Shown: positions 7,912 to 62,276, counted from the first letter of the stretch. The stretch is 64,000 bases of DNA from an uncultured bacterium (GCA_963768835.1 CAVYJB010000002.1:8230-72229), one strand, 5' to 3'. Program-made: numbers and translations. Notes: a model not told the origin generated them from the sequence alone.

Positions 7912-8820
7912 TTAGTAGGTGTAGCGGTCCACGAGGAGGCCTTTTGCGTCGAGGAGGAGGATCTGATCGTGCTGTTGGTCGAACGGCATCACGGTCCCGG
8001 TCCAGACGCGCCATTCGTTCGAGAAAAAGTTCGCGGTCCCCACGTAGTGGTTGTAGCAGCCGAGGTAGTTGAACGTGCGCTGGATGTACGCCTGGCAGTC
8101 CGCGTCGGGGAAATCGCTGAAACTGTTCATCTCATCCACGGTCGGGATCCGGCACCCCCCGAGCGAGTCGATGTAGCTCTGGCAGCGTCCCGAGAATCCC
8201 CCGATCACGCCCTGGTCGATGGCGGGGCAGTTGTCGGGGAGGGCGGGCGTGAAGTTCGCCGTGCCGTTCAGGTATCCCATGCATTCGTTCAGGCGGAGGT
8301 TCACCCCGATGGGATTCTGGGAACCGTACACCTCGAGGTAGTCGCTCGACTGGAGCACGATGTCCGCGGAGGCCGCGGTCCCGGCGGGATTGTAGTTCGC
8401 CACCGCCTGCGGAATCACCACGTCGCCGTGGTTCGCGTGAACCCTCCACCCGGTCACGTCGACGCCCGAGGTGAGGCTCGAATCGACGGAGGACAGGTTG
8501 AACTGGCCGTTCCATCCGAAGCTCGGGGGCTGAACCGAGGAGAGATGCACCTTCTGGTACAAAGGGGAGAGCTGCGCCACCGTGAAGCCCGGCGGCGGGG
8601 TCGGGGTCGGCGGACTCGGAGGCGCTGCAGGCGTGGGCGCGGGCTGCGGGGAGGGAGGTGGGGGAAGCCGCGACCCCACGGTCAGGCTGCTCGTCGAATG
8701 CAGGGAGAGCCCGGAGAAGAATTTCCCGAGGTTCAGGTCGCGGAAGACCGGGAGAATGACCGCGTAGATGAGTACGATAATGATGCCGATTGCGATGACC
8801 AGAAAGACGATCTTCTGCAT
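7912..8820 (-). CDS. membrane-anchored secreted protein with Pro/Thr-rich linker, hypothetical
   Basis: N-terminal TM helix, PPPPSPQPAPTP linker, Cys-rich C-terminal domain; starts 5 nt after leuS stop (co-transcribed). Confidence 0.55.
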   Translation of the reverse strand: MQKIVFLVIAIGIIIVLIYAVILPVFRDLNLGKFFSGLSLHSTSSLTVGSRLPPPPSPQPAPTPAAPPSPPTPTPPPGFTVAQLSPLYQKVHLSSVQPPSFGWNGQFNLSSVDSSLTSGVDVTGWRVHANHGDVVIPQAVANYNPAGTAASADIVLQSSDYLEVYGSQNPIGVNLRLNECMGYLNGTANFTPALPDNCPAIDQGVIGGFSGRCQSYIDSLGGCRIPTVDEMNSFSDFPDADCQAYIQRTFNYLGCYNHYVGTANFFSNEWRVWTGTVMPFDQQHDQILLLDAKGLLVDRYTY

Positions 8821-8824
8821 GGGT

Positions 8825-11800
8825 CTATATCACGAAGTTCACGAGGCGGTCGGGGACCACGATGACTTTTTTCGCTGTGCCGGTCAGGAATTTCGCCACA
8901 TTCGGGTTCTCGCGCGCGAGGCGCTCCACCTCCGCTTCCCCCGTGCCGGCGGACACCTCAATGGTACCACGAAGCTTGCCGTTCACCTGCACGGCGATCT
9001 TCACCGTGGATTCGACGAGGAACTTCGGATTGTATGAGGGCCACCCGCTCTGGTGGATCGAGCCTTTGTTGCCGCGCGCGTGCCAGAGCTCCTCGGTGAT
9101 GTGGGGTGCGAAAGGCGCGAGAAGTTTCAGGAACGTCTCCCGGTGCTCCTTTGAAGCGCCGCCCGCGGCCTCGAACACATTCAAACATATCATCAGGGCC
9201 GAGATGGCGGTGTTGTAGTTCAGAGCCTCGATGTCGTCGGTGACTTTCTTGATCGCCTTGTGCACCGCCGCTTCGATTCCCGGGCTCTTCGCCGCCTCCT
9301 TTTCCTGGTCGCCGAACCATTTCCATACCCGCTCCAGGAACCGCGTGATGCCGAGGACCGCCTCGTCGCGGAAATCGCCGCCCTGCTCGAAGGGCGCGAG
9401 GAACATGAGATACATCCGGAGCGCGTCCGCGCCGAACTTCCGGATGTACTCGTCGGGGTTCACCACGTTCCCTTTTGACTTCGACATCTTGGCGCCCTCG
9501 CTGATCAGAAGGCCGTGCGCGCGGAACTTCGGGAAGGGTTCCCCGACCGGCGCGCGGGATGTCCCGAACTCCAGCAGGTTCATATCGTGGAGCGCGAGCG
9601 CGACGAACCGGACGTAGAGAAGGTGGAGCACGGCGTGCTCCGCGCCGCCGGTATAGAGGTTCACCGGGAACCATTTCTTCACAAGGCCCGGATCCCACGG
9701 CTCTTTTCCGGCGGTTTTCGCGGTCGTCGAGGGATAACGCAGGTAGTACCACGCGGAGTCGAGAAAGGTGTCCGAGACATCGGTCTCGCGCCGCGCCTTC
9801 CCTCCGCAGGACGGGCACTTCGCTTCGTAGAAATCCTTGACCGACGCGAGGGGCGATTCCCCTTTCCCCTGCGGGCGGAACTCCTTCACGTGCGGGAGCA
9901 CCACCGGGAGATCTTTCTCCGGCACCGCATACCATCCGGGCATCCCGCTCTGCTCCCCTTTTCCCGCCGCGGCGCACGCCTCGCAGTGGATCATTGGGAT
10001 CGGCGCGCCCCAGTAGCGCTGGCGCGAGATAAGCCAGTCCCGGAGCCGGTATTGGGTTTTGAGTTCCCCGCCCGCGAACTTCGTGATGGCCGGAATCGCT
10101 TCGGTTACGTCCATACCGTCAAACTTCCCGGAATTTACAAGAAAGCTATTGCTTCCATCCCCAGGGAAAACTTTCCCTTCGTAAAATTCGCCAACCGAAG
10201 TCTTCCCTAAATCAGCTGTATCGATAGGGGGATAAACAATTTTGATAGGAAGTTTGAATTTCTTCGCGAACTCGAAGTCGCGCTCGTCGTGTGCCGGCAC
10301 CGCCATGATGGCGCCCGTGCCATACCCCGAGAGAACGTAGTCCGCGACGAAAATCGGGATCTCTGCCTTGTTCATAGGATTGATCGCCTTCACGCCTTTC
10401 AGTTCCACGCCGGTTTTCTCTTTCTCTTCCTGTATCCGCTCCGCTTCAGACTTCCCCGCCGCCTTCTTGACGTACCCTTCCACCTCCTTCCAGTTTCCGA
10501 TCCTCGACTTCAGGCAATTCACCAGTTCGTGCTCCGGAGAAAGCACCATGTAGGTCGCGCCAAAAAGCGTGTCCGGGCGCGTCGTGAACACGCGAATCGA
10601 ATCGATGCAGTGACGCAGAATTTCCGGCTCCTGTTCCCCGCACGCATGCGGTTTGTTCGCGGCAAAATCAAAGAGCGTCCCGCCGATGAGTTTCTGGAGG
10701 TTCGCGGTATTGTCCTGCGGGACCGTATCGTCGGTCATGTCCCGCAACACGTGGATTTCTCCCGCGTTTTTCCCGATCCTTGCCGCGTCGAACTTCCAAT
10801 CGAACGCGTAGGAAGGAAAATCCTCATCGAGGAAGCGGTTTTCCGAGTAGCATCCCACAAGCACGGTTCTCCGGACCGGAACGGGAAGTTTCTCGAGCAC
10901 CTTGAGCGCCACAACGCCCCCCAGACTGTGCCCGACCAGAACGGTGTCCTTATCAAAAGGCGTGTGCTTCAGAACCTCGGTGACCTGGTCCGCAACTTTC
11001 GGGTCATCGGTCTCCGGAAGGAGGGGAGCGTACACTTTTGCGCCGCGCTTTTCGAGTTCCTGTTTCAACCACGGGAAGAAATTCTTGGCCGGAGAGCCGT
11101 TATAGCCGTGGAGCAGCACGTAGGACGGCGCCACGCTCCCCGCGATCTCGAAATCGATGAGCGCGCCCTCGCTCTTCCCGATCCAGTTCCGCTGGGCGAT
11201 CTTCACCCGCTCGGACCAGTCGATCTTCTCCAGGTTTTCGAGGAGCCTCGGCGCGTACTTCGTGATACGGAAAAACCACTGCTCGAGGTCGCGCTTCTCG
11301 ACCACCGAGGAGCACCGCTCGCACTTCCCCGCGATGACCTGCTCGTCTGCGAGCACGGTCATATCCTTCGGGCACCAGTTCACCGACTGCTTCTTGCGGT
11401 ACGCGAGGCCCGCCTTCCAGAGCTGTACGAAGACCCACTGCGTCCATCGGTAGTAGGCGGGATCGTAGGTTTCGAGCTTCTCCTTCCACGCGTAGCCGTT
11501 CCCGATCATCTCGAGCTGCCGGTAGAAGTTCTCCTGCGAGACCTTCGCCTGGTCCATCGGGTGCGTGCCGATCTTCAAGGCATAGTTCTCCGAGTGGATG
11601 CCGAAGCCGTCGAGGCCGATGGGCTCGAACACGTCGTACCCCTCCATGCGCTTCTTGCGGCCGTAGATGTCCGCGCCCGTGAAGGCATACATGTTCCCGA
11701 CGTGGAGCCCCTCCGCGGAGGGGTACGGGAACATCATCAGGTTGTAGAACGGTTTCTTCGCGCCGCTCAAATCCGGCTCGTAGGTTCCGTCCTCGAGCCA

Positions 11801-11857
11801 TTGCTTCTGCCACTTCCTCTCGATGGCGCCGAAATCGTACTTCTCCATGTATCTCAA
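8825..11857 (-). CDS. leuS: leucyl-tRNA synthetase carrying an inserted alpha/beta serine-hydrolase-like domain
   Basis: HIGH-region (PYPSAEGLHVGN), Zn-1 CxxC..CxxC, editing-domain motifs (VFTTRPDT, MAVPAHDERDFEFA), KMSKS; about 175-aa insert with HGYNGSP and GHSLGG motifs at aa 243-415. Confidence 0.9.
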   Translation of the reverse strand: MRYMEKYDFGAIERKWQKQWLEDGTYEPDLSGAKKPFYNLMMFPYPSAEGLHVGNMYAFTGADIYGRKKRMEGYDVFEPIGLDGFGIHSENYALKIGTHPMDQAKVSQENFYRQLEMIGNGYAWKEKLETYDPAYYRWTQWVFVQLWKAGLAYRKKQSVNWCPKDMTVLADEQVIAGKCERCSSVVEKRDLEQWFFRITKYAPRLLENLEKIDWSERVKIAQRNWIGKSEGALIDFEIAGSVAPSYVLLHGYNGSPAKNFFPWLKQELEKRGAKVYAPLLPETDDPKVADQVTEVLKHTPFDKDTVLVGHSLGGVVALKVLEKLPVPVRRTVLVGCYSENRFLDEDFPSYAFDWKFDAARIGKNAGEIHVLRDMTDDTVPQDNTANLQKLIGGTLFDFAANKPHACGEQEPEILRHCIDSIRVFTTRPDTLFGATYMVLSPEHELVNCLKSRIGNWKEVEGYVKKAAGKSEAERIQEEKEKTGVELKGVKAINPMNKAEIPIFVADYVLSGYGTGAIMAVPAHDERDFEFAKKFKLPIKIVYPPIDTADLGKTSVGEFYEGKVFPGDGSNSFLVNSGKFDGMDVTEAIPAITKFAGGELKTQYRLRDWLISRQRYWGAPIPMIHCEACAAAGKGEQSGMPGWYAVPEKDLPVVLPHVKEFRPQGKGESPLASVKDFYEAKCPSCGGKARRETDVSDTFLDSAWYYLRYPSTTAKTAGKEPWDPGLVKKWFPVNLYTGGAEHAVLHLLYVRFVALALHDMNLLEFGTSRAPVGEPFPKFRAHGLLISEGAKMSKSKGNVVNPDEYIRKFGADALRMYLMFLAPFEQGGDFRDEAVLGITRFLERVWKWFGDQEKEAAKSPGIEAAVHKAIKKVTDDIEALNYNTAISALMICLNVFEAAGGASKEHRETFLKLLAPFAPHITEELWHARGNKGSIHQSGWPSYNPKFLVESTVKIAVQVNGKLRGTIEVSAGTGEAEVERLARENPNVAKFLTGTAKKVIVVPDRLVNFVI

Positions 11858-11932: not shown

Positions 11933-12784
11933 TCAAGAGGTCGGAATCCCGAACACGCGCTCCACGTTCCGGAGAACCTGCCCCACAAATTCGTCCTCGG
12001 GGACCCCCCGGATCTCCGCGAGCTTCTGCGCCACCTCCACCACGTAGGCGGGCTCGTTCCGCGCGCCGCGGTGCGGCACGGGCGACACGTAGGGGGCGTC
12101 GGTCTCGGTCAGAATATGATCGGCGGGGATGGCTTTGATGGCCTCGTCGTAGCTCCGCGCGAAGGTCACCACGCCGCCGAAGGTGAAGGAGAAGCCGAGC
12201 CCGAGGAGAAGCTCCGCCTCCGCGGGGGCGCCGGTGAAGTAGTGGATGATGCCGGCGTTCGCGGGGTTGAGGAGCGCCTTGTGCTCCGTGAGGATCTGGA
12301 TGAGGTCCGAGTAGGCGTTCCGGCAGTGGATGACGAGCGGCTTCCCGACTTCGTGCGCGAGCACCAGGTGCTTCTGGAAGGTTTCCCGCTGCGTCTCCTG
12401 CGCCCCCGGCTCCATGGATTTCATGCTGAAGTAGTCGAGGCCGCACTCGCCGATGCCGACCACGCGGGGGTCCGCCGCGAGCTTCGCGTAGAACGCGGGG
12501 TCGAACTTCTCTCCGGGGTCCGAGAGGTCTTCGAAGACGCCGATGGCGAGGTCCTCGGGATCGTGCGTGACGTCGATGCTGTGCACGGGGTGGAGCCCCA
12601 CCGTCGCCCAGACGTCCAGATACCGGTGGGCGAACTCCACGGCAAGCGCGGAGGATTTCTGCTCGGTGCCCGCCGTGATCATCCCCACGCCGCGGACCCG
12701 GGCGCGCTCGATCACCTTCTCCACGTCCTCCTTATAGGCAGCGAAGTGGATGTGGGTGTGCGCGTCGAAGTACCGGTAGGCCAT
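11933..12784 (-). CDS. tatD: TatD-family metal-dependent hydrolase/DNase
   Basis: N-terminal FDAHTHIH motif plus later His/Asp/Glu residues typical of TatD; start may be 12808 (ORF track) or 12784 (MAYRYFDAHTH, preferred). Confidence 0.8.
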   Translation of the reverse strand: MAYRYFDAHTHIHFAAYKEDVEKVIERARVRGVGMITAGTEQKSSALAVEFAHRYLDVWATVGLHPVHSIDVTHDPEDLAIGVFEDLSDPGEKFDPAFYAKLAADPRVVGIGECGLDYFSMKSMEPGAQETQRETFQKHLVLAHEVGKPLVIHCRNAYSDLIQILTEHKALLNPANAGIIHYFTGAPAEAELLLGLGFSFTFGGVVTFARSYDEAIKAIPADHILTETDAPYVSPVPHRGARNEPAYVVEVAQKLAEIRGVPEDEFVGQVLRNVERVFGIPTS

Positions 12785-12912
12785 ACGGGGTGATTTCTTC
12801 ATCTCCATTCTACCATACGCGGCACGCAGGGGAACGCCTTGCCAGCGACACCCGGTTGGGTCTAGTATGGCCGCAGCCCACTCCCATACCCCATACCACG
12901 AACGGAGGATGT

Positions 12913-13557
12913 ATGCGTTGGAAAGTGGCTTGTTTCGACTGGAACGGCACCGCGCTCGATGACCGGAACCTCGCCTACGAGTTCGTCGCCCATATTTTCA
13001 GATCTTACCGCCGCACGGTCCCCAGCCCCGCAACGTACTACCGGGAAGTCTCAGAGGCGGGCTACATGGAGTTCTACCACAAGTACGGTATCCCGCTCGG
13101 AGAAGGCTCGAAGAGCAGGCTGAACCAGACGCGGCGCGAGTATTTCGCGGCGCATCCGGACCTCGCTCACCTCGCCCCGTACCTGCGTGTGACGCTCGCC
13201 GCGTGCCGGAGTCGGGGCCTCAAAACCGCGCTCGTGAGCGCCGAATCGCGCCCGATCCTCATGGATCGGATGGTGCAGTTCTCCCTCGCCGAACTCTTCG
13301 ACCAGATCCGCGGCGACGTCCAAGACAAGGCCGAGACGCTTCTCGAGGTCGCGCGGCGGTTCGACGCCGAACCTCAGGAGACATTCTACGTCGACGACTC
13401 CTTCGAGGGGCTCCTGGCGGCTAAAAGCGCGGGCGTGGTTCCCGTCGGCTACACCGGCGGCTACGGATCTCCGAAACAGATCGCCGAGGCGCAGCCCGAC
13501 AAAAAGCTCGTGATCGGGGATTTTCTCGATGTTATCCGTATCCTCGATGACGCTTAG
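12913..13557 (+). CDS. HAD-superfamily hydrolase-like protein
   Basis: Motif I FDWNGT (DxN variant of DxDG), Rossmannoid HAD layout; SD GGAGG before ATG 12913. Confidence 0.6.
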   Translation: MRWKVACFDWNGTALDDRNLAYEFVAHIFRSYRRTVPSPATYYREVSEAGYMEFYHKYGIPLGEGSKSRLNQTRREYFAAHPDLAHLAPYLRVTLAACRSRGLKTALVSAESRPILMDRMVQFSLAELFDQIRGDVQDKAETLLEVARRFDAEPQETFYVDDSFEGLLAAKSAGVVPVGYTGGYGSPKQIAEAQPDKKLVIGDFLDVIRILDDA

Positions 13558-13611: not shown

Positions 13612-13863
13612 TATAGAGCGGGTCGCCTTCGGCCTAGCCTACGGTCTCCTCGTTCTTGTTTGCTCCGGTCTGGCTGTGGGTTTTCTTGCCGCGATGGGTG
13701 CTCACTCGAACTTTCGCCTGAACTTCTGTATGGGCGTAGGCCTGATGATCGGTTTGGATCTTTGCATCCGATTCTTCGGCGCCAAGGTGGTTGCTGTAAG
13801 CCAATCACTTGTGGGGTCCTGAAGGTCGGAAGAGCTGGAAGGGATTGTGGTAGAGCTGCCGCA

Positions 13864-13892
13864 TAATATCGGCAGCTTTTTTTATGCGAATA
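13864..13892 (+). terminator. intrinsic terminator at host / low-GC island boundary
   Basis: gctgccg-cataatat-cggcagc followed by TTTTTTT. Confidence 0.7.
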
Positions 13893-14313
13893 CTACGACC
13901 ATCGTCACTTCTTTCGCTATCTCACCCCTCTCCACCAAAGCGGATTTTCCAGACGAAAAATCCCGATTCATCCCGCAAATAACTGCCAATTTGACAGTCC
14001 CAAATCCTTTTTTCCACTCAAACGGTTTTCCTTCCAGGAAGACCAGTTTCTGAAACTTGGGCTGTAAGTGTGGCACAAGACCGAACCATTGTCGGCCTAG
14101 GTTGCCGATGGACTTGGTCGCATAAATGATTGATCCTTCAGTATCGGGGTTCTTGATTGTCCCTACGGATTGAATTTTAGTGAATTGGACTCAGTTTAGG
14201 CCTCCCATTCGCCAATCTTGCCATTTCTTATCCTTGGTAACATCTTGACTTATTAGGATACTTTCGTATATAATTGTATATAGTTAATTATATAGTCAAG
14301 GTTAATCAAAAAT

Positions 14314-15372
14314 ATGAGCGAAAATAACTACAATAACCGAATAAAACTAAGCGCTGAGATTCTCGGAAAGGTAGCCAAAATCGATGAATTTAAGGGTCTT
14401 TGGCATGGTAGCTTAAGGCTAAGCCCGCAGATTTTGGGTCGCCTTAAGTCATCCGTAATTATCACCTCTACGGGTGCTTCTACCCGTATTGAGGGATCAA
14501 GAATGAGCGACGAAGACGTGGCTCGTCTTTTGCGTGGTTTGAAGTCAAATCCTCCCAAAAATCGTGATGAGCAAGAAGTTGCCGGATATGCCGATCTGCT
14601 CGGAAGAATTTTTGATCACCACAAGACACTAAAATTGACCGAGAATAATATTCTACAATTCCACAGCATTCTTTTGCAGTTCTCGGAGAAAGACCAGTCG
14701 CACAAAGGCAAATATAAAAATTCAGACAACGCGGTTGTGATGCGAGATGAAAAAGGTATAGAGCATATTTTGTTTAATCCGACCAAGCCATACTTGGTTA
14801 AGCCAGAAATGGAATCAATTATCGCTTGGGCAAATGATCGATTCGAGAAAAAAGAGCTCCACCCGATTCTTATCATCGCCAATTTTGTTTTTGAATTTTT
14901 GGCTATCCACCCGTTTCAAGATGGAAACGGTCGTCTTAGTCGTGCCTTGACGACTCTTCTTTTATTAAGAAACGATTACTCTTATACTCCGTACGTTTCT
15001 CTTGATGAAATTATTGAGGATAAAAAGGATAACTATTATTTAGCCTTAAGGGCGACACAAAATAATCACAAGACTGATCACGAGGATATTACGCCGTGGT
15101 TGAACTATCTACTCGATGCTCTAACTACTCAAGTCGTAAAAGCCAAAGAGGTAATGAATGCCGAACAACCGGAAAAACTTTTGTCCGAAAGACAAGGGCA
15201 GATTTTTGCCGTGCTCCAAGGTGGTGAAATGCTTGGTGTTGCCGAAATTGATAAACGACTCAATGGTTCTGTACCTCAAGTTACAATAAAACAATCTCTC
15301 GCCAGATTGGTAGCTTTGCGTTTAGTTGAACGTGTCGGCCAAGGACGAGGTGTTAGATATAAGAAAATATAA
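14314..15372 (+). CDS. fic: Fic-family protein (class II, N-terminal inhibitory motif), putative AMPylase with C-terminal winged HTH
   Basis: Fic motif HPFQDGNGRLSRA; N-terminal inhibitory (S/T)xxxE(G/N) motif STRIEGS; low GC (about 42%) versus about 65% host. Confidence 0.85.
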   Translation: MSENNYNNRIKLSAEILGKVAKIDEFKGLWHGSLRLSPQILGRLKSSVIITSTGASTRIEGSRMSDEDVARLLRGLKSNPPKNRDEQEVAGYADLLGRIFDHHKTLKLTENNILQFHSILLQFSEKDQSHKGKYKNSDNAVVMRDEKGIEHILFNPTKPYLVKPEMESIIAWANDRFEKKELHPILIIANFVFEFLAIHPFQDGNGRLSRALTTLLLLRNDYSYTPYVSLDEIIEDKKDNYYLALRATQNNHKTDHEDITPWLNYLLDALTTQVVKAKEVMNAEQPEKLLSERQGQIFAVLQGGEMLGVAEIDKRLNGSVPQVTIKQSLARLVALRLVERVGQGRGVRYKKI

Positions 15373-15505: not shown

Positions 15506-16066
15506 ATGAAAACGAGGTTTGTCCTGCACGGCGGATTCACACCGCATATAAAACAACAGGACGACGCATTTTTCAGGGAGGTACTGAGGAGTGCTCCTGA
15601 AGAAGCAAAGGTGCTACTCGTCTACTTTGCGAAAGAAGCTGACCGGATCAACGTCAACAAAGAAGAGGATATTAAGGAGTTTAATAAAAACAAAGACAAG
15701 AAGACACTCTTATTTGAAGTGGCTACCGAGGAGCTTTTCCTTTCGCAAGTTGCTTGGGCCGACGTTGTCTATCTGCACGGTGGCGCCACGGTGAAAATAT
15801 TGGAAGTTTTAAAGAAGTTTCCTAACTTGGGAAAATCGTTTGGTGGAAAAGTGATTGCCGGAGATTCTGCAGGCGCAAACGTGCTAGCGAAGGCCTTCTA
15901 CAGCCAGCGAGCGAATGGCGTGTTCGACGGGCTCGGCATCCTCCCAATCAGGGTTATCTGCCACTATTCGGAGGAACACAAAAACGTATTTCCAAATGAT
16001 GACTCTAGTGTTGAAACTCTGCTTCTGAGAGAATACGAGTACAAGACATTCGAGTGTGAGCTATAA
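15506..16066 (+). CDS. peptidase S51 (dipeptidase E / cyanophycinase-like) family protein
   Basis: GDSAGANVL nucleophile motif and LHGG motif typical of S51 family; low GC. Confidence 0.5.
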   Translation: MKTRFVLHGGFTPHIKQQDDAFFREVLRSAPEEAKVLLVYFAKEADRINVNKEEDIKEFNKNKDKKTLLFEVATEELFLSQVAWADVVYLHGGATVKILEVLKKFPNLGKSFGGKVIAGDSAGANVLAKAFYSQRANGVFDGLGILPIRVICHYSEEHKNVFPNDDSSVETLLLREYEYKTFECEL

Positions 16067-16072
16067 CGTATA

Positions 16073-16648
16073 ATGACCACAAAAGACGGGAAGGTGCTGA
16101 GCGTCGTCGATGAGGACGATAACGTGATTGGCGAGGCGACCCGCAAGGAGATTCACCAGAAGGGTTTGCTGCATCGCGAGATTCACGTCTGGTTTATAAC
16201 CCCGAATGGGGAGATTATTTTCCAGCACCGAGCAAAAGATAAGGACACGTACCCAGATTTACTTGATGCCACCGTCGGTGGACACGTTGAGATTGGGGAT
16301 GGCTACGAGAAGACCGCCCTCAAGGAGATTGAGGAAGAAACCGGGATTCGCGCCGATAGCAAAAACCTCCATTTTCTTAAAAAGCTGAGGACACGCTCCG
16401 AGGATAATATGACGAAGACGATAAATAACACCGTCCGCGCCCAGTACGCATATATATTCAGGGGGATGATAAGCGATTTGAGGGTGGAGGAGGGTAAAGC
16501 GCTCGGGTTCGAGGCGTGGCCAATCGATGAACTGTCGAATCTAAGTGAGGAGGACCGGAGGAGGTTCATACCTCTAATTCTCGCTCCTGGCACGCTTCAG
16601 CTATTTCAAGAAGCCAAAAATTCATTAGTTAATAACCATAGGAATTAG
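16073..16648 (+). CDS. Nudix hydrolase
   Basis: Nudix box GGHVEIGDGYEKTALKEIEEETGI. Confidence 0.8.
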   Translation: MTTKDGKVLSVVDEDDNVIGEATRKEIHQKGLLHREIHVWFITPNGEIIFQHRAKDKDTYPDLLDATVGGHVEIGDGYEKTALKEIEEETGIRADSKNLHFLKKLRTRSEDNMTKTINNTVRAQYAYIFRGMISDLRVEEGKALGFEAWPIDELSNLSEEDRRRFIPLILAPGTLQLFQEAKNSLVNNHRN

Positions 16649-16710: not shown

Positions 16711-18177
16711 TTAGGGGAGGCGCGGGAAGAGGATCGGAGCCTTTGAAACGGCGAGTGTCCCGTCCCACCGGATGCAATCCGTGATGCGCGCCGCGGTGTC
16801 GGGGAGGAAGGGCGCGAGGAGCGCCGCCGCGTTGTCGAGAAGCGTTACGAGGGAAAAGAGAACGGCGGTCTTCTCCTCACCTTTTAGCTCCCAGGGCTTC
16901 TTCTCGTTCACATAGACATCGCCCACCGAGACGAGCGCCGCGAGGGCCGCGAGCGCCTCGTGGAACTTCCACTCCCCGAGGTAGCGCGCCACCTCGGCCT
17001 TCGCGTGCCCGATCTTCGCGAGGAGCGCGGGGTCCGGCGCGAGGTCCTTCGGGAACGGGCCCGCGGCGGCCGCGAGCGTCGTCACCCGCGCCGTGAAATT
17101 CCCGATGCCGTTCGCAAGATCGCCGTTGTAGAGCTCGCGGAACTTCGCCTCGGAGAAATCCCCGTCCTCGGCGGCCGGGATCCCGCGCAGGAGGTAGTAC
17201 CGCACGGCGTCCGCCCCGTACTTCTCGACGAGGGCGAACGGGTCCGCGACGTTCCCGAGGGATTTCGACATCTTCTGCCCCCCGCTCGTAACGAATCCGT
17301 GGATGAAAATCTGGCGGGAGGTCGGCAGCCCCGCGGAGAGGAGCATCGCCTGCCACATCGCGGACTGCTGGCGGAGGTTGTCCTTGCCGGCCACCTGGAC
17401 CGCCTGCGGCGCCTCGACGGTGCCCCAGAACTCCTCGAACTGCTTCGCGTCCTCCGGCCACCCGAGCGTTGAGACGTAGTTCACGAGCGCGTCGAACCAG
17501 ACGTACATCACGTGGTCCTCGTCCCCCGGCACGGGAATCCCCCACGACATCTTCTCCTTGAGCCGCGAGATGCTGAAGTCGGAGAGCCCTTTCGCGACGA
17601 AGTTCCGTATCTCGGTTAGCCGGTGCGCGGGAAGGACGAAATCGGGATACTTCGCATAGAGATCGAGGAGGCGCTTCTGGTACCTGGAAAATTTAAAGAA
17701 GTAGTTCTCCTCCTCCCGTTCCTCGATGCGGAGGGAGGGGTGGAGCGGGCACTTGCCGTCCACGAGCTCGGAGTCGGTCTTTTCGAGCTCGCACCCCGTG
17801 CAGTACTTGGTGCGGTAGAGCTTCTTCTCGATGTCGCCCGCCGCGGCGCACCGCTTCCAGAACTCCTGGGCCGCCGTGATGTGGTGCGGGTCGGTCGTCC
17901 GGATGAAGGCGTGCGCGTCGATCGTGAGCGCCTGCATGAGCCGCGCGAAATGCGCGGCGTTCTCGTCCGCGAACGCCTGGGGGGTCTTCCCCGCCGCGAG
18001 GGCGTTCTGGTAAATCTTCACCCCGTGCTCGTCCGTGCCGGTGTTGAAGAACACCTCCGCGCCCGCGGCCCGGCGGCTGCGCGCGACCACGTCCGCTTGC
18101 ACGATCTCGAGCGCGAAACCGATGTGCGGAGCCGCGTTGACGTACGGCAGCGTCGTCGTGATGTAGAACCTCTTCAT
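16711..18177 (-). CDS. metG: methionyl-tRNA synthetase
   Basis: Class I aaRS HIGH-type motif (PYVNAAPHIGFAL), KMSKS (KMSKSLGN); likely start MKRFYITTTLPYVN (ORF-track start 18237 over-extended). Confidence 0.9.
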   Translation of the reverse strand: MKRFYITTTLPYVNAAPHIGFALEIVQADVVARSRRAAGAEVFFNTGTDEHGVKIYQNALAAGKTPQAFADENAAHFARLMQALTIDAHAFIRTTDPHHITAAQEFWKRCAAAGDIEKKLYRTKYCTGCELEKTDSELVDGKCPLHPSLRIEEREEENYFFKFSRYQKRLLDLYAKYPDFVLPAHRLTEIRNFVAKGLSDFSISRLKEKMSWGIPVPGDEDHVMYVWFDALVNYVSTLGWPEDAKQFEEFWGTVEAPQAVQVAGKDNLRQQSAMWQAMLLSAGLPTSRQIFIHGFVTSGGQKMSKSLGNVADPFALVEKYGADAVRYYLLRGIPAAEDGDFSEAKFRELYNGDLANGIGNFTARVTTLAAAAGPFPKDLAPDPALLAKIGHAKAEVARYLGEWKFHEALAALAALVSVGDVYVNEKKPWELKGEEKTAVLFSLVTLLDNAAALLAPFLPDTAARITDCIRWDGTLAVSKAPILFPRLP

Positions 18178-18187
18178 CGGAAGGGCG

Positions 18188-19210
18188 CTAGATACCGAGG
18201 GCCGGCCGCTGGCTCTTCCGTTCCGACATCCGCTCAAATACCTCCTGCGCGAGAACGGCGACCGGCACCGCGAGGATCACGCCGATCAGCCCCCCGACGT
18301 GCGCCCCGGCGAGGACCGCGACAACCACGATCACGGGGTGCACCCGCATCGTGCGCCCCATGACGAGAGGCACGAGAATGTGATTCTCCAGCTGGTGCGC
18401 GAGGAAGGAGAACAGCACGACGTAGAGGCCGAGCGAGAACGACTGCCCCAGGGCCACCGCGAAGGCCACGGCGCCCGTGATGATGGGCCCGATGATAGGA
18501 ACGAGCTCGAAGGCGGCTCCGAGGACGCCGAGGACGAGCGGATACTGCACGCCCATCGCCCAGAGTCCGAGGCCGAAGACGAGCCCCATGATGGCGGAGA
18601 GCGCGAGCTGGGCGCCGAGCCACCGGCGGATCTTCAGCTTGAAGCGGTCGAAGACGCGGAGCACCATCTCCTCGTACGCGCTCGGGAGAATGCCCCGCAG
18701 GAGCCGGTCCGTGCCGTCATGGTCGACGGTGAGATAGAAGGAGATCATGATCGTCGCGATCACGAGAAGCAGCTGTGAGAAAAACCCGGCGATGGCGCCC
18801 GTGATCGAGAAGTTCGGGGAGGAAAAGAAATTCAGGGCGTCGGTAAAGGACATCGAGAAATTCTGCGAGACGGCGGCGGGGATGTTCAGCGCTGAGAGCG
18901 ACGCGAGGATGCGGTTCACCAAGGCCGCGAATCCGCCGAGCTCGATCGCGACGACCGGAATGACGAAATAGACGATAGCCGAGAGCACGATGAGCGCCGT
19001 GAGGAAAATGAGAAGCGTCCCTAGGATGCGCGGGATCTTGCGCGCCTCGAGCGCGCTCACGACCGGGTCGAACCCCAGGGAGAGCACGACGCCGATCAGA
19101 AGGACGCCCACCACCTGTCGCGCGAGGTAGAACACCACGACGAGGAGAAAGAGCATAAGGGTGCGCCACAACGTGGCCCACCCGATATTGATATTGATCC
19201 AGTCCTTCAT
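18188..19210 (-). CDS. AI-2E family transporter (PerM-like permease)
   Basis: 8 predicted TM segments; overall AI-2E topology; start overlaps upstream M16 gene stop (ATGA). Confidence 0.7.
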   Translation of the reverse strand: MKDWININIGWATLWRTLMLFLLVVVFYLARQVVGVLLIGVVLSLGFDPVVSALEARKIPRILGTLLIFLTALIVLSAIVYFVIPVVAIELGGFAALVNRILASLSALNIPAAVSQNFSMSFTDALNFFSSPNFSITGAIAGFFSQLLLVIATIMISFYLTVDHDGTDRLLRGILPSAYEEMVLRVFDRFKLKIRRWLGAQLALSAIMGLVFGLGLWAMGVQYPLVLGVLGAAFELVPIIGPIITGAVAFAVALGQSFSLGLYVVLFSFLAHQLENHILVPLVMGRTMRVHPVIVVVAVLAGAHVGGLIGVILAVPVAVLAQEVFERMSERKSQRPALGI

Positions 19211-62027: not shown

Positions 62028-62116
62028 AGTGAATTTACCTTACTCCGCTCCCGCTTCAGTTGTCAACAAAATCCGCGGGCATCCGCCGGAAACGGACCCC
62101 GGAACTTTTTCGCGTG

Positions 62117-62188
62117 TGGGCGCTGAGGGGATCGAACCCCCGACCTACTCGGTGTAAACGAGTCGCTCTACCACTGAGCTAAGCGCCC
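62117..62188 (-). tRNA. tRNA-Val (anticodon TAC)
   Basis: Manual cloverleaf: acceptor GGGCGCT/AGCGCCC, D-arm GCTC-AGTGGTA-GAGC, anticodon stem ACTCG/CGAGT with loop TTTACAC, T-arm GGGGG-TTCGATC-CCCTC, discriminator A; CCA not encoded. Confidence 0.85.
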
Positions 62189-62204
62189 GACGGAACCCGG
62201 AAAG

Positions 62205-62276
62205 TGGATGCGCCTGGATTCGAACCAGGAACCAGCCGTGTATAAGACGGCCGCTCTACCATTGAGCTACGCATCC
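62205..62276 (-). tRNA. tRNA with anticodon TAT (UAU), formally tRNA-Ile reading AUA
   Basis: Manual cloverleaf: acceptor GGATGCG/CGCATCC, D-arm GCTC-AATGGTA-GAGC, anticodon stem GCCGT/ACGGC with loop CTTATAC (U33, A37), T-arm CCTGG-TTCGAAT-CCAGG, discriminator A. Confidence 0.75.

Follow-up and report, generated by a model that had tools for sequence, protein, structure and literature searches.

A predicted YdeN/RBBP9-type serine hydrolase domain grafted onto the CP1 editing domain of leucyl-tRNA synthetase is common in Patescibacteria

Why should a leucyl-tRNA synthetase (LeuRS) contain what looks like a complete serine hydrolase? This question is raised by the leuS gene on a 64,000-nucleotide stretch of DNA from an uncultured bacterium (GCA_963768835.1 CAVYJB010000002.1:8230-72229), referred to below as the window, with positions counted from its first letter. 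A specialist in aminoacyl-tRNA synthetases (aaRSs) would not expect a serine hydrolase in LeuRS, and an initial, sequence-only reading of the window had singled out the insertion. Here, we report that the inserted segment is a predicted member of the YdeN/RBBP9 Ser_hydrolase family, that its putative catalytic residues are conserved in homologous inserts, and that both fusions and operons link its clade to aaRSs. We then consider what such a domain might do on an enzyme that already possesses an editing site.

The leuS gene lies on the minus strand (8825..11848, stop codon included), as do all of its parts described below. The open reading frame (ORF) occupies 8825..11857 and encodes 1010 aa when counted from a TTG codon. 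The ATG at 11848 (MEKYDF) is likely to be the true start, since both T. thermophilus LeuRS (1h3n) and a database protein that is 100% identical to the window LeuRS (P0010, 1007 aa) begin there; the numbering of the window ORF, used here, is that of P0010 plus 3. The product matches 1h3n with an E-value of 9e-196 and scores 862.3 bits against TIGR00396 (leuS_bact), for which the curated equivalog cut-off is 548.4. A further 188 bits are recorded for PF13603, the CP1 editing domain of LeuRS. Judged by these matches, the window LeuRS is a complete, functional-looking enzyme of the bacterial type.

Alignment to 1h3n falls into two blocks, in which residues 4-241 of the window protein correspond to residues 1-239 and residues 421-763 to residues 243-563. 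Approximately 178 aa therefore stand in place of about 3 aa of the T. thermophilus enzyme. Compared with P0034, a plain relative of 827 aa, the window protein has a single extra segment, which measures 176 aa and lies at this point. From these alignments we place the inserted domain at aa 241-420 (10598..11137), with a length of 176-180 aa. The sequence-only reading had put it at 10613-11131, which is exactly aa 243-415; its position was right, and the true insert is slightly wider. The peptides quoted in that reading are all present, namely RNWIGKSEGALIDFEI (aa 222-238), LLHGYNGSP (248-256), GHSLGG (309-314), LRDMTDD (371-377), NKPHAC (401-406), VFTTRPDT (423-430) and AVPAHDERDFEFA.

The replaced residues, about three in number, form the turn between two strands whose identity is supported by both alignment and AlphaFold2 (AF2). 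The first of these, WIGKSEGALIDFEI (aa 225-238, 11144..11185), is the first strand of the CP1 beta-hairpin and lies just upstream of the insert. The second, IRVFTTRPDT (aa 421-430, 10568..10597), comprises the returning hairpin strand and the T-rich editing peptide of CP1. A full-length AF2 model built on a 58-sequence alignment (predicted local distance difference test, pLDDT, 86; predicted template-modelling score, pTM, 0.77) places the hairpin strands at P0010 residues 225-235 and 417-422 and folds the intervening segment, with confidence, as a domain of its own. According to this model, the hydrolase is grafted onto the tip of the first CP1 beta-hairpin, directly before the T-rich editing peptide. 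The earlier description of an insert lying just before CP1 is thus correct in that the segment immediately precedes TTRPDT, and needs amending in that it sits within the first beta-hairpin of CP1 itself.

What is the inserted domain? In Pfam searches the insert alone matches Abhydrolase_6 (39.6 bits, cut-off 26.3), Abhydrolase_1 (37.3 bits, cut-off 25.8) and Ser_hydrolase (PF06821), the last with 32.2 bits for the insert alone and 27.8 bits within the whole protein against a cut-off of 22. A profile made from 44 inserts and relatives finds B. subtilis YdeN as its best match (E 6.7e-35), followed by RBBP9 (2.4e-24), with the next PDB match at 1.6e-8; scores of this size lie well outside what chance would give. 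AF2 modelling of the insert on a 44-sequence alignment gives an alpha/beta-hydrolase fold with an alternating beta/alpha pattern, at a pLDDT of 93.8 and a pTM of 0.91. Foldseek searches with this model place YdeN (1uxo; best match, E 2e-13, TM-score 0.80 over 185 columns) and RBBP9 (TM-score 0.82) at the top, with alignments that span nearly the whole of each, and larger, lidded alpha/beta hydrolases rank far behind them. By predicted fold and sequence relationship alike, the insert is a member of the YdeN/RBBP9 Ser_hydrolase family, with a minimal, lid-less alpha/beta fold of approximately 180 aa. All four lines of evidence bear out the original call of a YdeN/RBBP9-type alpha/beta serine hydrolase.

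Like the window insert, YdeN is lid-less and spans about 180 aa, and both contain an HG motif and a GHSLG elbow as well as the acid and the histidine. They differ in context: YdeN is free-standing, whereas the window copy is internal to LeuRS and belongs to a sub-clade whose free members adjoin leuS. Human RBBP9 (PDB 2qs9, 7oex, 9fcr) belongs to the same family and likewise has a Ser-Asp-His triad, but is a eukaryotic stand-alone protein with only about 21% identity, and we know of no tie between RBBP9 and tRNA. The residue that follows the nucleophile also differs, being Ser76 in RBBP9 and Leu312 in the window protein.

The conservation of individual residues was assessed in 80 insert-bearing LeuRS and in a larger set of 146 inserts at the same position (site 1). 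The HG motif that would form the oxyanion hole, His250-Gly251 in LLHGYNGSP (11090..11116), has His250 in 77 and Gly251 in 73 of the 80 proteins, and its histidine in 141 of 146. Ser311 (10925-10927), the predicted nucleophile in the GHSLGG elbow (10916..10933), is present in 80/80 and 146/146, and Gly313 in 80/80. The proposed acid of the triad, Asp376 (10730..10732, within LRDMTDD), is D in 72 of the 80 proteins and in 128 of the 146 inserts and E in all the others (8 and 18), and His404 (10646..10648, within NKPHAC), the proposed base, is again universal (80/80; 146/146). Trp263 is as invariant in the 80 insert-bearing LeuRS as Ser311, Gly313 and His404. In alignments with RBBP9 and YdeN, Ser311 falls at the catalytic serine of the family, Asp376 pairs with the D of the DDP motif and His404 with the histidine of GHF. 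The Ser311/Asp376/His404 triad and HG motif put forward in the sequence-only reading therefore coincide with conserved positions in 146 homologous inserts, as far as alignment can establish. Identity of the inserts to the window copy ranges from 33-73%, with a median of 48%. An invariant triad in domains whose identity falls to 33% points to purifying selection on catalysis. A further conserved element is the F-x-D motif of the FLDEDF loop (aa 342-347, 10817..10834; Phe342 in 67/80, Asp344 in 54/80, with D/E variable at position 345), which corresponds to the RBBP9 loop that carries the alpha-amine-binding residue Glu108.

Does the hydrolase add to the synthetase, or does it replace part of it? 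The CP1 editing-site motif GTGAIMAVPAHDERDFEFA (aa 513-531, 10265..10321), which includes the universally conserved Asp527, aligns with AVPAHDQRDYEFA of T. thermophilus, and both TTRPDT and GTGAIMAVPAHDERD of the window protein align with T. thermophilus CP1 motifs. The KMSKS loop lies at aa 790-794 (9476..9490), and KMSKS is found in 120/120 relatives examined. When 82 insert-bearing and 33 plain relatives are compared, TTRPDT, GTGAIM, PAHDxRD and KMSKS are conserved equally in both. This agrees with the earlier view of the domain as an addition. Replacement of the editing site can be ruled out, since the T-rich peptide, GTG, PAHDxRD and KMSKS are all conserved with or without the insert.

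Two features of the synthetase deviate from the textbook pattern. The class I HIGH motif takes the form HVGN (aa 52-55, 11693..11704), with the second histidine replaced. This variant is typical of the lineage, occurring in 56/82 insert-bearing and 33/33 plain relatives, with HIGG in part of the clade. As every plain relative has HVGN, the variant is not linked to the insert, and we could also reject the idea that it marks an inactive paralogue, because it is common to the clade including all of the plain enzymes. The Zn-1 module, recognised from its sequence as CPKD ... CERC (aa 162-182, 11312..11374), opens with a C-x-x-D pair where the consensus of relatives is CPSC. The earlier statement that the CxxC pairs of Zn-1 are all intact consequently holds for CERC, and for the downstream CEAC/CPSC, and fails for the first pair.

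How widespread is this arrangement? About two thirds of the 120 closest LeuRS, whose sources include Liptonbacteria, Sungbacteria, Paceibacterota, Minisyncoccia and Parcubacteria, have the insert. A scan of GTDB species-representative genomes recovered 56 loci, of which 47 were site-1 LeuRS, 4 had the domain after CP1, 1 was another fusion and 4 were stand-alone; these counts are lower bounds, as the scan used two peptide patterns only. A metagenome scan gave 80 loci, with 68 site-1 LeuRS (67 complete and 1 N-terminally truncated) and one after CP1. Finally, when 1.84 billion cluster representatives were searched with a profile, 519 clusters reached E <= 1e-30, and the top 148 representatives comprised 61 multidomain proteins, 43 of them with LeuRS sequence. 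Judging from these searches, the insert is common in Patescibacteria, also known as the candidate phyla radiation (CPR), and hundreds of ultra-small bacteria share the predicted hydrolase-synthetase partnership, as do some archaea through adjacent genes.

The domain is thus widespread and not unique to the window gene. The sequence-only reading was aware of no described LeuRS with this insertion, and no LeuRS or other aaRS with this domain was found in full-text literature, a search whose coverage left out most subscription journals. Databases label such proteins variously as 'alpha/beta fold hydrolase', 'class I tRNA ligase family protein' or 'hypothetical protein', and JGI uses 'leucyl-tRNA synthetase/predicted alpha/beta hydrolase family esterase'; from these labels, the domain appears to have been noticed by automated pipelines only. 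The mixed naming of insert-bearing LeuRS also has a bearing on annotation.

Bacterial-type LeuRS with the insert were additionally seen in metagenome-assembled genomes (MAGs) labelled Woesearchaeota, Pacearchaeota, Nanoarchaeota or 'uncultured Gammaproteobacteria/Saccharibacteria' (genome contigs; loci L013, L017, L018, L019, L025, L027-L029, L034, L040, L045 and L052, and L024, L031, L044 and L046). Either mislabelled bins or CPR-DPANN transfer would account for the finding. The genes neighbouring L017 and L029 were not diagnostic for an archaeal or a bacterial origin of the MAG.

The link between hydrolase and synthetase extends beyond fusion. We looked up the genomic context of the nine best-scoring stand-alone homologues, two of which were uninformative, and found that six of the remaining seven adjoin leuS. 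Two lie immediately upstream of a plain bacterial leuS, at distances of 7 bp (P0141) and 37 bp (P0155). Another is 25 bp upstream of a NUDIX-bearing bacterial leuS (P0151), and a fourth is 1.35 kb upstream of a bacterial leuS (P0157). P0177 abuts an archaeal-type leuS, and P0147 is the first gene of a tightly packed operon with an archaeal-type leuS; P0148 is not beside leuS. The P0147 operon (locus L067, 4001-8549; GCA_020049755.1, JAHZTO010004402.1) runs Ser_hydrolase, Ser_hydrolase, YbaK-like tRNA_edit (PF04073), Ham1 and archaeal-type LeuRS (leuS_arch 751 bits, cut-off 648), and its gene boundaries overlap or abut. At this locus, enzymes that are fused into bacterial LeuRS occur as separate genes beside an archaeal LeuRS. 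In a tree of the domain, stand-alone copies encoded beside leuS fall among the fused ones, and none of the more distant family members that we looked up is near leuS. This hydrolase clade is strongly and repeatedly linked to synthetases, above all LeuRS, by fusion at two sites and by operon adjacency, and the link involves both bacterial and archaeal types.

The second site lies after CP1, in LeuRS of the Magasanikbacteria type (L046, L048, L050, L054). In the domain tree these copies cluster separately, suggesting that the insertion arose independently. The domain is also found in isoleucyl-tRNA synthetase (IleRS): at L151 it occupies an analogous position, after the N-terminal catalytic part of a protein that scores 720 bits against TIGR00392 (cut-off 621), and some of the IleRS loci (L146, L149, L151, L152) combine a doubled hydrolase with a low-molecular-weight (LMW) phosphotyrosine phosphatase and NUDIX, in ORFs of up to 1753 aa.

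Other enzymes have been inserted into the same synthetases. A NUDIX domain of about 140-150 aa is found inside CP1, at positions 364-372 of the plain enzyme, in many Patescibacteria LeuRS, with or without the hydrolase (for example P0012, P0017, P0020, P0031, P0082 and P0119; loci L048, L070 and L021, the last with two NUDIX stretches). The closest NCBIfam matches of these NUDIX inserts, RppH, YtkD and MutT, all score far below their cut-offs, and for this reason an assignment to the Ap4A or RppH subfamily was dropped. In P0107 (Candidatus Jorgensenbacteria, OGG40235.1), a Ham1/ITPase-like domain (PF01725, aa 255-459) is placed at exactly the hairpin that elsewhere carries the hydrolase. A methyltransferase (L050) and a HAD domain (L055) are further LeuRS inserts.

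What might the hydrolase do? Our preferred proposal, which we put forward tentatively and would not presume to be correct, is that the domain assists the synthetase as an accessory hydrolase of aminoacyl esters. Under this proposal, Ser311 would accept an aminoacyl group with a free alpha-amine to form an acyl-enzyme, from which the amino acid would then be freed. The likeliest substrates would be aminoacyl esters on or close to the enzyme: mis-acylated or otherwise unwanted aminoacyl-tRNA 3' ends left by CP1, or released by-products that are esterified or derived from aminoacyl-adenylate. The domain may thereby give the synthetase a second site of hydrolytic quality control, carried by the mobile CP1 body and chemically distinct from CP1 itself, and would act in cis when fused and in trans when encoded by a separate gene. 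We favour this proposal because of the repeated fusion to aaRSs, the adjacency to leuS, the operon shared with a YbaK-like deacylase, and the aminoacyl chemistry of RBBP9, to our knowledge the only characterised member of a family whose bacterial members are uncharacterised. RBBP9 is an aminopeptidase for which acyl-enzyme adducts with single Leu/Ile, Met, Phe, Tyr and Trp residues have been described, and its substrates require a free alpha-amine, held by Glu108 (PMC8866121). It is also reported to activate valacyclovir, in which a nucleoside analogue is esterified with valine (Shenoy et al. 2020, as cited in PMC7730578). Such aminoacyl chemistry is what a hydrolase of aminoacyl-tRNA or aminoacyl esters would need. 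A broader version of the proposal is possible but more doubtful, namely that the domain represents a new, third hydrolytic quality-control site in aaRSs, one that would use covalent catalysis on aminoacyl-tRNA or on aminoacyl esters or adenylates with a free alpha-amine, operating in cis in the CP1 of LeuRS and IleRS and in trans beside leuS, in both CPR and ultra-small archaea.

Several observations weigh against an aminoacyl-ester hydrolase, and some of them support its main rival: an active house-cleaning enzyme, with a substrate unrelated to leucylation, may have hitch-hiked on the permissive periphery of CP1, where an essential and constitutively expressed gene assures its expression in a tiny, regulator-poor genome. 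We consider this rather unlikely, though well worth keeping in mind. A rough neighbour-joining tree built from the LeuRS core mixes insert-bearing enzymes with plain ones, which indicates repeated gain or loss of the domain, and it groups the window LeuRS with plain enzymes. The domain can therefore be dispensed with or replaced, and such patchiness among closely related LeuRS is what a passenger would show. LeuRS and IleRS also accommodate, at or close to these sites, small enzymes of unrelated kinds (NUDIX, Ham1, methyltransferase, HAD and LMW phosphatase), a diversity that fits a permissive-site or hitch-hiking scenario. The fusion partners are also broader than amino-acid editing would predict. 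At L081 the hydrolase and a histidine phosphatase domain are fused to the N-terminus of a dimeric-type glycyl-tRNA synthetase (GlyRS), an enzyme with no need for amino-acid editing that we know of, and fusions outside the aaRSs involve SecA, inositol monophosphatase, methyltransferase, NUDIX and a second alpha/beta hydrolase (Hydrolase_4/Peptidase_S9), with cases including a SecA_SW fragment and a tandem duplicate (P0165, 535 aa; P0247, P0211, P0231, P0227, P0178, P0194, P0136). In addition, YdeN has no substrate known to us, and the pairing of RBBP9 Glu108 with an acidic residue of the FLDEDF loop is ambiguous; the loop is modelled at a pLDDT of 80-87. Set against a passenger role are the strength of the LeuRS preference (43/61 multidomain matches and 69/80 metagenome loci) and the independent recurrence of the synthetase link at different sites, in different aaRSs and beside both bacterial and archaeal leuS. 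The operon in which the hydrolase is paired with a YbaK-like aminoacyl-tRNA deacylase, and the action of the closest characterised relative, RBBP9, on aminoacyl groups, likewise sit poorly with a substrate unrelated to aminoacylation.

A variant of the clean-up idea keeps the connection to the synthetase and changes the substrate, which would be a reactive small molecule from class Ia pre-transfer editing, such as homocysteine thiolactone or a released non-cognate aminoacyl-adenylate, instead of aminoacyl-tRNA. LeuRS and IleRS, both partners of the domain, are among the class Ia enzymes that edit homocysteine to the thiolactone. The co-inserted NUDIX and Ham1 domains belong to nucleotide pyrophosphatases, which would suit the clean-up of nucleotide-linked by-products, although the NUDIX inserts match no specific subfamily above its cut-off. 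BPHL, another alpha/beta hydrolase that hydrolyses valacyclovir, is reported to be an efficient homocysteine thiolactonase (PMC4198189), but it belongs to a different alpha/beta hydrolase family. Methionyl-tRNA synthetase (MetRS), the main thiolactone producer, is absent from the partners seen, the MetRS of the window is plain, and the GlyRS fusion does not fit; on balance we regard the detoxification of editing by-products as improbable. Appended aaRS domains often serve in binding, and a few stand-alone relatives without the nucleophile exist (for example P0156, with GFDLG). The window domain could in principle be a co-opted structural, tRNA-binding or protein-docking module of this kind, yet the presence of the serine and the histidine in 146/146 inserts, an acid that is always D/E and a conserved oxyanion His-Gly, all maintained while identity falls to 33%, make a non-catalytic role very unlikely. 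There is, lastly, next to no probability that the architecture is an artefact caused by chimeric assembly, a mobile element or a frameshift in an adjacent gene. The GC content at third codon positions (GC3) does shift along leuS, being 0.93 over the first 240 codons, 0.73 within the insert and 0.79 over the last 590 codons. Overall GC content changes only modestly, however (0.58 in the insert versus 0.60-0.61 in its flanks), no flanking direct or inverted repeats of note were found around the insert, and both junctions are in frame within conserved strands. The full-length AF2 model is confident across both of them, and the same architecture is present in over 100 independent assemblies, which come from many different studies. 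A chimera or mobile element is in effect ruled out by this recurrence, the in-frame junctions, the mild GC change and the lack of repeats.

Comparison with known systems helps to place the proposed aminoacyl-ester hydrolase. One precedent is CP1 itself, which clears aminoacyl esters from the tRNA 3' end. In LeuRS, IleRS and valyl-tRNA synthetase, CP1 is a hydrolytic module inserted into the Rossmann fold of the same enzyme, and the new domain is in turn grafted onto CP1. The two are nevertheless unrelated in fold. CP1 forms no covalent acyl-enzyme, relying instead on a conserved Asp together with a Thr-rich peptide, and every LeuRS has it; the serine hydrolase is found in some lineages only. 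The trans-editing factors (YbaK/ProXp, PF04073; AlaX; D-aminoacyl-tRNA deacylase, DTD) would resemble the insert in proposed role alone, that is, in the hydrolysis of unwanted aminoacyl-tRNA. They are unrelated to it in sequence or fold, and searches of the insert against Pfam and NCBIfam gave no match to YbaK/ProX PF04073, AlaX tRNA_SAD or DTD. A class Ia synthetase with an extra small-molecule-modifying enzyme domain has a parallel in NF040702 ('isoleucine--tRNA ligase, N-acetyltransferase domain-containing'). There, the added domain is a GNAT domain at another position, and the window protein, with 50 bits against a cut-off of 1999, is not a member.

The remainder of the window offers several observations on the surroundings of leuS. 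Directly upstream of leuS and on the same strand is a TatD gene (11933-12808), and a divergent HAD hydrolase gene follows at 12790-13557. A Peptidase_S51-like ORF (15506-16066), a stand-alone NUDIX gene (16073-16648) and the plain MetRS gene (16711-18237) lie further along. Close kinship of the HAD and NUDIX genes of the window with the HAD and NUDIX domains inserted in other LeuRS was considered and rejected, as BLASTP gave nothing beyond one weak NUDIX match at 1.6e-7. Immediately downstream of leuS is a 302-aa ORF (7912-8820, minus strand) whose product has a hydrophobic N-terminal segment and a stretch rich in proline, PPPPSPQPAPTPAAPPSPPTPTPPP; it matches no Pfam family. Across a Fic/DOC-family gene region at ~13700-14900 (Fic-domain ORF 14314-15372, plus strand), GC content falls from 0.60-0.68 to 0.37-0.47, which suggests that this Fic-bearing, low-GC segment was recently acquired. 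Adjacent tRNA-Val(UAC) and tRNA-Ile(UAU) genes are found at 62116-62276 on the minus strand. In bacteria the UAU anticodon is uncommon for tRNA-Ile; AUA is usually read by a lysidine-modified CAU tRNA.

The implications differ according to which reading is correct. Few folds are known to edit for aaRSs, namely CP1, INS/YbaK, AlaX/ThrRS N2, PheRS B3/B4 and DTD. If the inserted domain acts on aminoacyl esters, it would bring both a new fold and a new covalent chemistry to translational quality control, and would give the YdeN/RBBP9 family a first functional setting; the comparative data already place RBBP9-like hydrolysis of 'aminoacyl-X' compounds beside the enzymes that make aminoacyl esters. 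Should it prove to be a third quality-control site, this would be the first physiological function for the YdeN branch of the family, and the co-inserted NUDIX and Ham1 domains would make LeuRS the scaffold of a proofreading and clean-up assembly. If the domain has instead hitch-hiked on an essential gene, then CPR bacteria would carry arrays of small house-cleaning enzymes (Ser_hydrolase, NUDIX, Ham1, HAD, phosphatases and methyltransferase) mainly on LeuRS and less so on IleRS, GlyRS and SecA, a previously unreported trait of organisms with reduced genomes.

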